Shown: positions 10,587 to 11,418 of the stretch, in pieces
Position numbering within the stretch: position 1 is the stretch's first letter
Layout of the letters: each line of letters starts with the position of its first letter
Origin: Shigella phage ESh36
Sequence record: ON528746
Direction: 5' to 3' (one strand)
DNA: 64,000 bases
Position numbers and translations under genes: made by a program
Notes under the pieces: model-generated
The model's database searches: none
What the model was told of the DNA's origin: nothing
Seen by the model: the letters and a program-made list of their open reading frames with translations, nothing else

Positions 10587-10662
10587 TGGTCGAGGCAGTA
10601 GGGATCGAACCTACGACCCAGGACTTAGAAGGTCCTTGCTCTTCCTTCTGAGCTATGCCTCG
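10587..10662 (-). tRNA. tRNA-Arg (anticodon UCU)
   Basis: Manual fold of reverse complement: acceptor CGAGGCA/TGCCTCG, D-arm GCTC..GAGC, anticodon loop CUUCUAA, T-arm GTAGG-TTCGATC-CCTAC, CCA encoded. Confidence 0.8.
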
Positions 10663-10666
10663 TATT

Positions 10667-10741
10667 TGGCGGACGTGATAGGATTCGAACCTATAACCAA
10701 TCGCTTAACAGGCGATCGCTCTGCCATTGAGCTACACATCC
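10667..10741 (-). tRNA. tRNA-Asn (anticodon GUU)
   Basis: Acceptor GGATGTG/CACGTCC, perfect anticodon stem ATCGC/GCGAT, loop CUGUUAA, T-loop TTCGAAT, CCA encoded. Confidence 0.75.
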
Positions 10742-10745
10742 AAAT

Positions 10746-10832
10746 TGGTGGGGAGTGATGGAGTCGAACCACCCGAGTCGCAATGACAATGAATTTACAG
10801 TCCACACCGCTACCTCTACGGGATAACTCCCC
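10746..10832 (-). tRNA. tRNA-Tyr (anticodon GUA), long variable arm
   Basis: Acceptor GGGGAGT/ACTCCCC, anticodon loop CUGUAAA, long variable arm, T-arm GGTGG-TTCGACT-CCATC, CCA encoded; D-arm pairing irregular. Confidence 0.6.
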
Positions 10833-10845
10833 TTAATTCTTAATT

Positions 10846-10920
10846 TGGTGGCCCTGGGTGGAATTGAACCACCATCTGGCGATTATGAGTCGCTTGCTTG
10901 AACCTTCCAGCTACAGGGCC
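10846..10920 (-). tRNA. tRNA-Ile (anticodon CAU; formally Met-type anticodon, as for the T4 AUA-reading tRNA-Ile)
   Basis: Acceptor GGCCCTG/CAGGGCC, anticodon loop CUCAUAA, T-arm GGTGG-TTCAATT-CCACC, CCA encoded. Confidence 0.7.
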
Positions 10921-10921
10921 T

Positions 10922-10997
10922 TGGTGCTGATTGACGGAATCGAACCGCCGACCTTCTCATTACAAGTGAGTTGCTCTACCTACTGAGCTAAATCAGC
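10922..10997 (-). tRNA. tRNA-Thr (anticodon UGU)
   Basis: Acceptor GCTGATT/AATCAGC, D-arm AGCTCAGTAGGTAGAGC, anticodon loop CUUGUAA, T-loop TTCGATT, CCA encoded. Confidence 0.8.
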
Positions 10998-11002
10998 AAA
11001 AC

Positions 11003-11092
11003 TGGCGGAGGCGATAGGATTTGAACCTATGAGTCGCCGGAGCGACTGCCGGTTTTCAAGACCGGTGCATTAAACCACTCTGCCACGCCTCC
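11003..11092 (-). tRNA. tRNA-Ser (anticodon UGA)
   Basis: Reverse complement GGAGGCGTGGCAGAGTGG...CTTGAAA...TTCAAATCCTATCGCCTCCGCCA; type II tRNA with long variable arm. Confidence 0.85.
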
Positions 11093-11094
11093 AG

Positions 11095-11168
11095 TCTCCA
11101 TACAAGGATTTGAACCTTGGACCTCCTGATCCCAAATCAGGCGCTCTACCAAACTGAGCTACACGGAG
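11095..11168 (-). tRNA. tRNA-Pro (anticodon UGG)
   Basis: Acceptor CTCCGTG/TATGGAG, D-arm GCTCAGTTTGGTAGAGC, anticodon loop UUUGGGA, T-loop TTCAAAT; CCA not encoded (abuts tRNA-Ser). Confidence 0.8.
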
Positions 11169-11178
11169 TAAATTAAAT

Positions 11179-11252
11179 TGGAGCGGATAATGAGAATCGA
11201 ACTCACATCATCAGATTGGAAGTCTGAGGTAATACCATTATACGATATCCGC
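11179..11252 (-). tRNA. tRNA-Gly (anticodon UCC)
   Basis: Acceptor GCGGATA/TATCCGC, anticodon loop CUUCCAA, T-loop TTCGATT, CCA encoded. Confidence 0.8.
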
Positions 11253-11257
11253 AAATT

Positions 11258-11344
11258 TGGTGCGAGAAGTGGGACTCGAACCCACAAGGAAATCATTCCG
11301 CAGCATTTTAAGTGCTGTGCCTTTACCAATTTGACCATTCTCGC
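11258..11344 (-). tRNA. tRNA-Leu (anticodon UAA)
   Basis: Reverse complement GCGAGAATGGTCAAATTGGTAAAGGCACAGCACTTAAAATGCTG...GGTTCGAGTCCCACTTCTCGCACCA; type II. Confidence 0.85.
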
Positions 11345-11345
11345 G

Positions 11346-11418
11346 CTGGGAATAAAGGACTCGAACCTTTGCATCTAGCAGTCAAAGTGCTATGCCTTAC
11401 CAACTTGGCTAATTCCCA
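11346..11418 (-). tRNA. tRNA-Gln (anticodon UUG)
   Basis: Reverse complement TGGGAATTAGCCAAGTTGGTAAGGCATAGCACTTTGACTGC...GGTTCGAGTCCTTTATTCCCA; CCA not encoded. Confidence 0.8.

Follow-up and report, generated by a model that had tools for sequence, protein, structure and literature searches.

Shigella phage ESh36 (sequence record ON528746) carries, at positions 10587-11418 of the 64,000-nucleotide stretch analysed here (the window), a series of transfer RNA (tRNA) genes in which tRNA-Tyr and tRNA-Asn, seen from phage T4 alone, occupy the position of segB. Is this a T4-type cluster that was recently altered, or an arrangement already known from other phages, and what might the two additional tRNAs be for? 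In our reading, which we hold to be very probable, these genes belong to a Tequatrovirus stable-RNA operon in the segB-free form represented by T2 and RB27; its tRNAs would supply codons that the phage uses heavily, and tRNA-Tyr would also replace a host tRNA destroyed by defence nucleases.

The tRNA cluster and its segB-free allele

Applied to the whole window, ARAGORN identifies ten tRNA genes, which lie together on the minus strand between 10587 and 11418, and no further tRNA gene outside these limits. In the order of transcription they are Gln(UUG), Leu(UAA), Gly(UCC), Pro(UGG), Ser(UGA), Thr(UGU), a tRNA with the anticodon CAU (called CAU below), Tyr(GUA), Asn(GUU) and Arg(UCU); an earlier note on this DNA, based on hand folding, had arrived at the same minus-strand genes in the same order and with the same outer limits. 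All genes but Tyr score 59.3-74.1 bits against the Rfam tRNA model RF00005 (gathering score, 29 bits), with E-values of 2.7e-10 to 2.4e-14 that place these nine far beyond chance. The intergenic spacers measure 0-13 nucleotides, CCA is encoded in eight of the ten genes (not in Gln and Pro), and no open reading frame (ORF) of at least 100 amino acids lies within 10587-11418. Judged by their sequences, the ten genes are all intact. Sub-threshold Rfam matches to Plastid-ycf2, sX4 and YrlA in this region fall on the tRNA genes and were discarded as tRNA look-alikes.

The stretch from 10200 to 11600 matches 1053 phage records and is covered to at least 80% in 425 of them. Nearly all of the matching records are Tequatrovirus, with Escherichia, Shigella and their relatives as hosts. 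Over the first 25 kilobases (kb) of the window no record exceeds about 96% identity, and the phage is therefore a T-even phage identical to no deposited genome. Phage RB27 (KM607000 / NC_025448; genes RB27_t001-t010, rnaC and rnaD) agrees with the window in all ten tRNAs, their anticodons and their order, with rnaD and rnaC coming next; the two align as one colinear piece with 98.2% identity over 1367 nucleotides. Its Gln, Leu, Pro, Ser, CAU, Asn and Arg genes are identical to those of the window over their full length, its Thr gene over the 73 nucleotides annotated in RB27, and its Gly and Tyr genes differ by one base each.

When the genes are compared one by one (Table 1), the cluster is, on the evidence of their sequences, a mosaic in which the first six genes are common to T4 and the CAU, Tyr, Asn and Arg genes constitute a T2-type allele. 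Besides the absence of Tyr and Asn from T4, the CAU (47/72) and Arg (51/69) genes are also unlike those of T4, so that the difference concerns a four-gene allele, CAU-Tyr-Asn-Arg, as opposed to Ile-segB-Arg in T4. The earlier description of the cluster as the T4 set plus two genes must therefore be abandoned, the whole distal block being of the T2L type, which in T4 has given way to Ile-segB-Arg. The accompanying statement that the genes from Gln to Ile follow the T4 order is correct for the order, but the CAU and Arg genes themselves are not those of T4. An ungapped comparison of the CAU-Arg block between the window and T2 fails at an insertion or deletion in the Ile-Tyr spacer, and per-gene identities were used.

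The absence of segB from the cluster, also proposed in the earlier note, is borne out by tblastn searches with the SegB proteins of T4 and T6, which yield nothing at 10-12 kb and, as their sole match in the window, a paralog of 32% identity at 51523-52107. This form of the locus has a history. The tRNA regions of T2L, RB1 and RB3 (EMBL entries AJ880101, AJ884577 and AJ884578) were sequenced by Brok-Volchanskaya et al. (2008, NAR 36:2094; PMC2330249), who reported segB to be absent from them. In the same study the preferred 27-base-pair SegB site was placed wholly inside the tRNA-Asn gene and weaker sites around GGTTCRANTCC motifs at the 3' termini of the other tRNA genes; when T4 was crossed with T2L, segB was found in 99.6% of the progeny and the T2L block tRNA-Met(CAU)-Tyr-Asn-Arg was excluded (PMC2330249). 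Ten of the 11 T2L tRNA-region primers match the window exactly (primer #6 at 10743-10723), the motif GGTTCRANTCC is present in eight of the ten window tRNAs, and the Asn gene, which contains GGTTCGAATCC, equals that of T2 over the 72 nucleotides annotated there. Seen against the work on T2L, RB1 and RB3, the missing segB denotes an un-invaded recipient allele and is no oddity. By its sequence, the Asn gene is predicted to be the preferred SegB cut site; if a segB-carrying relative infected the same cell, the phage would thus act as recipient and lose out, and should surrender its CAU-Tyr-Asn-Arg block to that relative.

The SegB paralog belongs to a GIY-YIG homing-endonuclease ORF of 205 amino acids (51523-52140, plus strand; Pfam SegE_GIY-YIG), which adjoins a downstream ORF of 502 amino acids resembling the UvsW helicase (52143-53651, plus strand). 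The genome thus carries a seg-type gene. Among T-even phages, the slot between Ile2 and Arg is variable.

The tRNA-Tyr gene and its D arm

Of the two calls that the earlier note would have withdrawn if rejected by a covariance model, Asn is accepted with the best score of the cluster (74.1 bits); Tyr gives no match at the RF00005 gathering threshold, which formally tells against it. In E-value mode, the best match within the Rfam clan is tRNA-Sec, with 29.9 bits against a threshold of 47. We rejected an assignment to tRNA-Sec (RF01852) on this score and on the anticodon, which is GUA and not UCA.

The structure was examined in an alignment of 15 sequences, made up of the window gene and 14 homologs from different phage groups. 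The cloverleaf comprises 24 pairs; 99.4% of the cells are paired, both sides have changed in 15 of the 24 pairs, and none of 500 shuffles equals this result. Sliding the pair partners by 1-3 columns reduces pairing to 44-59%, and RNAalifold predicts the same cloverleaf without guidance. The earlier remark that the D arm pairs poorly applies to the canonical register, as drawn by ARAGORN, in which 60% of the cells pair and one position never does; it does not apply to the arm itself, which pairs in 100% of the cells once the 5' strand of the stem is shifted by two bases (CCGU/GCGG, with a 7-8-nucleotide loop A-R-N-G-G-U-A). The canonical register was discarded on this comparison. In two Demerecviridae phages the D stem shows a double change from C-G to U-A.

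The shift leaves a linker of four nucleotides, UAUC (10822-10825), between the acceptor stem and the D stem, and some homologs have five, whereas two are usual in tRNAs. Across the alignment the leading U-A of the linker is invariant and the extra nucleotides vary freely. It is because of these two extra bases before the D stem that the covariance models miss the gene. The covariation among homologs, in turn, argues that the tRNA is real and under selection, and that the failure of RF00005 to detect it is a false negative. Apart from the four-nucleotide linker, the predicted structure is a normal class II cloverleaf. The anticodon GUA, A73, the G1-C72 pair and the long variable arm, all of which can be read from the sequence, are identity elements of the bacterial tyrosyl-tRNA synthetase.

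Neither the two studies of phage tRNA-Tyr discussed below (PMC13096335, PMC11555353) nor a text search, which did not extend to the older literature on T5 tRNA sequencing, gave any mention of a shifted D arm or a long connector; the displaced D arm of this phage-wide lineage may be under-described. One could envision the extra connector nucleotides as a selected structural adaptation, altering for example recognition by defence nucleases or by host tRNA enzymes, instead of as a neutral feature, an idea to which we attach little probability. For the annotation of phage tRNAs, it is useful to realize that a widespread tRNA-Tyr is systematically missed by covariance models or called "pseudo".

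A sensitive BLAST search finds the lineage in 1336 phage records, among them those of several T4-like genera, of the rV5-like, Felix O1-like and T5-like groups, and of phages that infect Klebsiella, Serratia and Enterococcus. It is also present in 269 of 5426 complete Escherichia coli genomes, on plasmids only and in no chromosome. A phage-type gene of 93% identity is found on E. coli plasmids of about 110 kb (for instance NZ_CP024264.1), and on one inspected E. coli plasmid of 72 kb the Tyr gene is flanked by tRNA-Asn and tRNA-Thr; these plasmids are possibly phage-plasmids. Identity to what we take to be the sequence of E. coli tyrT is about 68%. A scan of viral contigs with an anticodon-loop and T-loop pattern returned 120 loci with very diverse Tyr genes, a single one of which falls in this lineage.

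Tyrosine, asparagine, aspartate and histidine tRNAs constitute the target set of colicin E5. The notion of an anti-defence cassette of GUN-anticodon tRNAs in the Tyr/Asn(/His) slot was considered and dropped: neighbour enrichment among 88 IMG/VR loci was weak (24/116 against 131/987, p = 0.017, with kinship ignored).

Codon demand, host defence and the alternatives

Codon usage was compared between 68 ORFs of the window and a 50-kb sample of E. coli. Every codon that the cluster would serve is over-used in the phage: AGA 14.8-fold, AUA 5.2-fold, UCA 3.5-fold, GGA 3.3-fold, ACA and CCA 3.0-fold each, AAU 2.8-fold, UAU 2.2-fold, UUA 1.8-fold and CAA 1.4-fold. Lysine, asparagine (1.59-fold) and tyrosine (1.56-fold) are the three most over-used amino acids. 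By analogy with T4, the array would be transcribed as polycistronic precursors and cut by host enzymes to mature tRNAs; those for Gln and Pro would need to have CCA added, the other eight encoding their own. The products would then top up the host pool for AGA, AUA, GGA, UCA, ACA, CCA, UUA, CAA, UAU and AAU in an A+T-rich phage.

For tRNA-Tyr a further role can be proposed from experiments on related phages. The PtuAB nuclease of the Septu system cleaves tRNA-Tyr within its variable loop (Chihara et al. 2026, Nat Commun 17:3468; PMC13096335). T4, which lacks a tRNA-Tyr gene, is sensitive to Septu and T2 is resistant; T6 expresses its tRNA-Tyr, which rescues infection when over-produced, and escapes Septu through a segB-driven amplification of the gene, and deletion of its tRNA region raises sensitivity (PMC13096335). 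In T5-like phages, tRNA-Tyr counters the PtuAB of retron-Eco7, which degrades tRNA-Tyr, and this activity requires the anticodon and the stems (Azam et al. 2024, Nat Commun 15:9586; PMC11555353). The allele described here carries the tRNA-Tyr that the T6 experiments tie to tolerance of Septu-type (PtuAB) defence, in a form identical to the gene of the Septu-resistant T2. By analogy, the phage tRNA-Tyr would replace the tRNA-Tyr destroyed by host defence nucleases, and the best reading of this gene is that it could serve in both capacities, codon supply and replacement of the cleaved tRNA. Plain codon supply is the role we favour for the other nine tRNAs.

How do these conclusions stand up to the alternatives? 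A new arrangement, produced by a recent insertion in which Tyr and Asn replaced segB in a T4-type cluster, might be surmised from the position of the two genes relative to T4. We consider it most improbable: the divergence of the flanking CAU and Arg genes makes this a whole four-gene allele and not an insert, the same layout occurs in RB27 and hundreds of records, SegB cuts inside Asn and converts the allele to the T4 type in crosses (PMC2330249), and in T6 segB lies exactly at the position of Asn in the window. The arrangement is already known, having been annotated in RB27 and many other records; the allele without segB was analysed in 2008 (PMC2330249) and the role of its tRNA-Tyr was studied in 2024-2026. 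Just as hard to credit is the suggestion that nine tRNAs of the cluster work and that Tyr is a pseudogene in decay or resembles a tRNA by chance. The gene does fall short of the RF00005 threshold, its single-sequence minimum-energy fold is not a cloverleaf (z = -0.65, an uninformative value), it was omitted from a close relative annotated with tRNAscan-SE and appears in other records as tRNA-OTHER, as pseudo or not at all, and ARAGORN misses four of 13 homologs. Against this stand its occurrence in many unrelated phage groups, the pairs upheld by changes on both sides, which no shuffle matched, the cloverleaf returned by RNAalifold, and the T6 gene (86/87 identical), which gives a Northern blot signal and rescues infection under Septu (PMC13096335).

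Two further alternatives bear on function. The CAU tRNA is labelled tRNA-Met by ARAGORN, in most GenBank records, in the annotations of RB27, T2 and T6 and in PMC2330249, and an unmodified CAU anticodon does read AUG. The ARAGORN label derives from the anticodon alone, however, and the tRNA-Ile of the earlier note is favoured both by matches in E. coli and by comparison of the stems. Among 5426 E. coli genomes, the genes that match it best are annotated as tRNA-Ile in 5424. In the acceptor stem, the 5' strand GGCCCUG agrees with the GGCCCUU of an E. coli CAU tRNA-Ile at six of seven positions, and the anticodon stem-loop, AGCGA-CUCAUAA-UCGCC, is identical to that of the same E. coli tRNA. Together with the 5.2-fold over-use of AUA and the location of the gene in the slot of the T4 tRNA-Ile, these findings make an elongator tRNA-Met unlikely, and an initiator is out of the question since G1-C72 is paired. 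The gene also has C4-G69 and C5-G68, acceptor pairs that are, we presume, determinants for the lysidine synthetase TilS. Most likely, then, to judge from its sequence, the CAU tRNA is a tRNA-Ile2 of the lysidine type that reads AUA. The remaining alternative is that Tyr and Asn serve codon demand only and that the link with Septu and the retron is incidental for this phage. Asparagine and tyrosine rank second and third among the over-used amino acids, AAU and UAU are both over-used, and the other eight tRNAs follow the classical pattern of codon compensation. Yet Septu sensitivity among T-even phages follows tRNA-Tyr, T4 being sensitive, T6 amplifying the gene and a T6 tRNA-region deletion faring worse (PMC13096335); the same lineage shields T5-like phages from retron-Eco7 (PMC11555353); and its horizontal movement among unrelated phages and plasmids suits a portable anti-defence function. 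Codon demand alone is thus a possible explanation, though on the doubtful side.

Some observations do weigh against the interpretation that we prefer, namely an operon combining codon supply with replacement of tRNA-Tyr. The operon was read here from the sequences of its genes, the E. coli codon sample comprises just 41 ORFs, and the sub-threshold Rfam score and non-cloverleaf fold of Tyr belong on the same side of the balance. We know of no defence role for tRNA-Asn. As for tRNA-Tyr, the T6 copy is itself cleaved by Septu and gives wild-type T6 no more than partial protection (PMC13096335), so that the effect is dose-dependent and unproven at single copy, and the resistance of T2 was not causally tied to its tRNA-Tyr (PMC13096335).

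The RNA operon, its surroundings and its counterparts

Beyond tRNA-Arg the window continues with homologs of rnaD and rnaC, which encode the stable species 2 and 1 RNAs, and with a terminator-like hairpin that is likely to mark the end of the RNA operon (Table 1). The earlier note had placed the two stable RNAs between Ile and Arg in T4; segB is all that T4 has there, and in T4 as in the window rnaD and rnaC lie past Arg. The window homologs of rnaD and rnaC have no Rfam family match. The 3' end of rnaC is a tRNA-like T-arm sequence, CCGGGTTCAAGTCCCGG. As in the T-even operon, a one-strand tRNA array is followed by rnaD and rnaC, the whole being located between the e-region ORFs and the trna.2-4/ipI genes and colinear with the T4 and RB27 annotations.

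An ORF of 171 amino acids (11505-12020, minus strand; phrog_2290, no assigned function) separates tRNA-Gln from the trna.2 homolog; RB27 and T2 have this ORF too, whereas T4 lacks it at the corresponding position. For the flanking ORFs of 171 and 187 amino acids, Pfam gave no significant match and the PHROGs families are without assigned function. Within the cluster, the D arm of the CAU tRNA reads GCUG-GAAGGUUC-AAGC, with G at the near-invariant A14 position and with the stem closed by a G-A pair; the gene nonetheless reaches 59.9 bits against the tRNA model.

Table 1. Features of the stable-RNA region of phage ESh36, with identities to T4, RB27, T2 and T6 genes given as matches/aligned positions
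Feature	Position	Strand	Evidence and remarks	T4	RB27	T2	T6
tRNA-Gln (UUG)	11345..11418	-	ARAGORN; Rfam 66.0 bits; no encoded CCA; 0-nt spacer to tRNA-Leu	73/73	73/73	72/73	
tRNA-Leu (UAA), long variable arm	11258..11344	-	ARAGORN; Rfam 59.3 bits	87/87	87/87	84/84	
tRNA-Gly (UCC)	11179..11252	-	ARAGORN; Rfam 65.8 bits	74/74	73/74	74/74	
tRNA-Pro (UGG), no encoded CCA	11094..11168	-	ARAGORN; Rfam 66.8 bits	74/74	74/74	74/74	
tRNA-Ser (UGA), long variable arm	11003..11092	-	ARAGORN; Rfam 62.6 bits	87/87	90/90	87/87	
tRNA-Thr (UGU)	10922..10997	-	ARAGORN; Rfam 72.9 bits	73/76	73/73	absent	
CAU tRNA, most likely tRNA-Ile2, T2/RB27 allele	10846..10920	-	ARAGORN (label Met); Rfam 59.9 bits	47/72	75/75	72/72	
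tRNA-Tyr (GUA), 87 nt, encoded CCA	10746..10832	-	ARAGORN; covariation; below Rfam RF00005 threshold	absent	86/87	87/87	86/87
Tyr acceptor stem	10832-10826/10756-10750	-					
Tyr connector	10825-10822	-					
Tyr D stem	10821-10818/10810-10807	-					
Tyr anticodon	10798-10796	-					
Tyr variable arm	10788-10774	-					
Tyr T arm	10773-10757	-					
tRNA-Asn (GUU)	10667..10741	-	ARAGORN; Rfam 74.1 bits (best of all)	absent	75/75	72/72	
tRNA-Arg (UCU), T2/RB27 allele	10587..10662	-	ARAGORN; Rfam 65.8 bits	51/69	76/76	73/73	
rnaD (stable species 2 RNA) homolog	10465..10585	-	begins 2 nt past tRNA-Arg	104/121	119/122		
rnaC (stable species 1 RNA) homolog	10321..10459	-		136/139	136/139		
Intrinsic-terminator-like hairpin, 10 pairs (7 G-C), then T run	10247..10270	-	downstream of rnaC				

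The cluster belongs to the textbook picture of T-even phages and its present form has already been sequenced, annotated and tested experimentally; the value of recognizing it lies in annotation and in the prediction of phenotypes. The comparison with T4 (NC_000866) illustrates both sides of the relationship. The genome position, the strand and the overall order are the same, T4 having Gln, Leu, Gly, Pro, Ser, Thr, Ile, segB, Arg, rnaD and rnaC, and the first five genes are 100% identical; in contrast, T4 has segB and lacks Tyr and Asn, its Ile and Arg are other genes, and its rnaD matches at just 104/121 positions. T2 shares with the window the CAU, Tyr, Asn and Arg genes, each 100% identical over its aligned length. 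T2/T2L differ in having a 402-base-pair ORF (trna.1) in place of tRNA-Thr and a 351-base-pair ORF (trna.2) past Arg; in the window, the T2L primers for these two ORFs have no match and tblastn finds nothing convincing. With both T2 ORFs absent, the window represents the compact subtype of RB1, RB3 and RB27, RB1 and RB3 having been compared through their published description only. A close relative, UGKSEcP1 (OV877085.1), has His(GUG) as an additional, eleventh tRNA between Asn and Arg, and a 351-base-pair ORF past Arg.

T6 (AP018814.1, 65676-66967) is a mosaic of another kind: its CAU (74/74) and Arg (75/75) genes are of the T4 type and its Tyr gene is of the T2 type, segB takes exactly the position of Asn in the window, and Pro and Ser are missing. 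The T6 and window Tyr genes have their sole difference in the T stem, the anticodon and variable arms being identical; without segB, however, the window phage lacks the amplification route by which T6 counters Septu. The T5-like phages belong to another family (Demerecviridae) and carry their Tyr gene in a tRNA-rich region behind a strong promoter of its own. Their tRNA-Tyr is of the same lineage, about 83% identical to that of the window, and shares with it the displaced D arm and the variable arm of class II.

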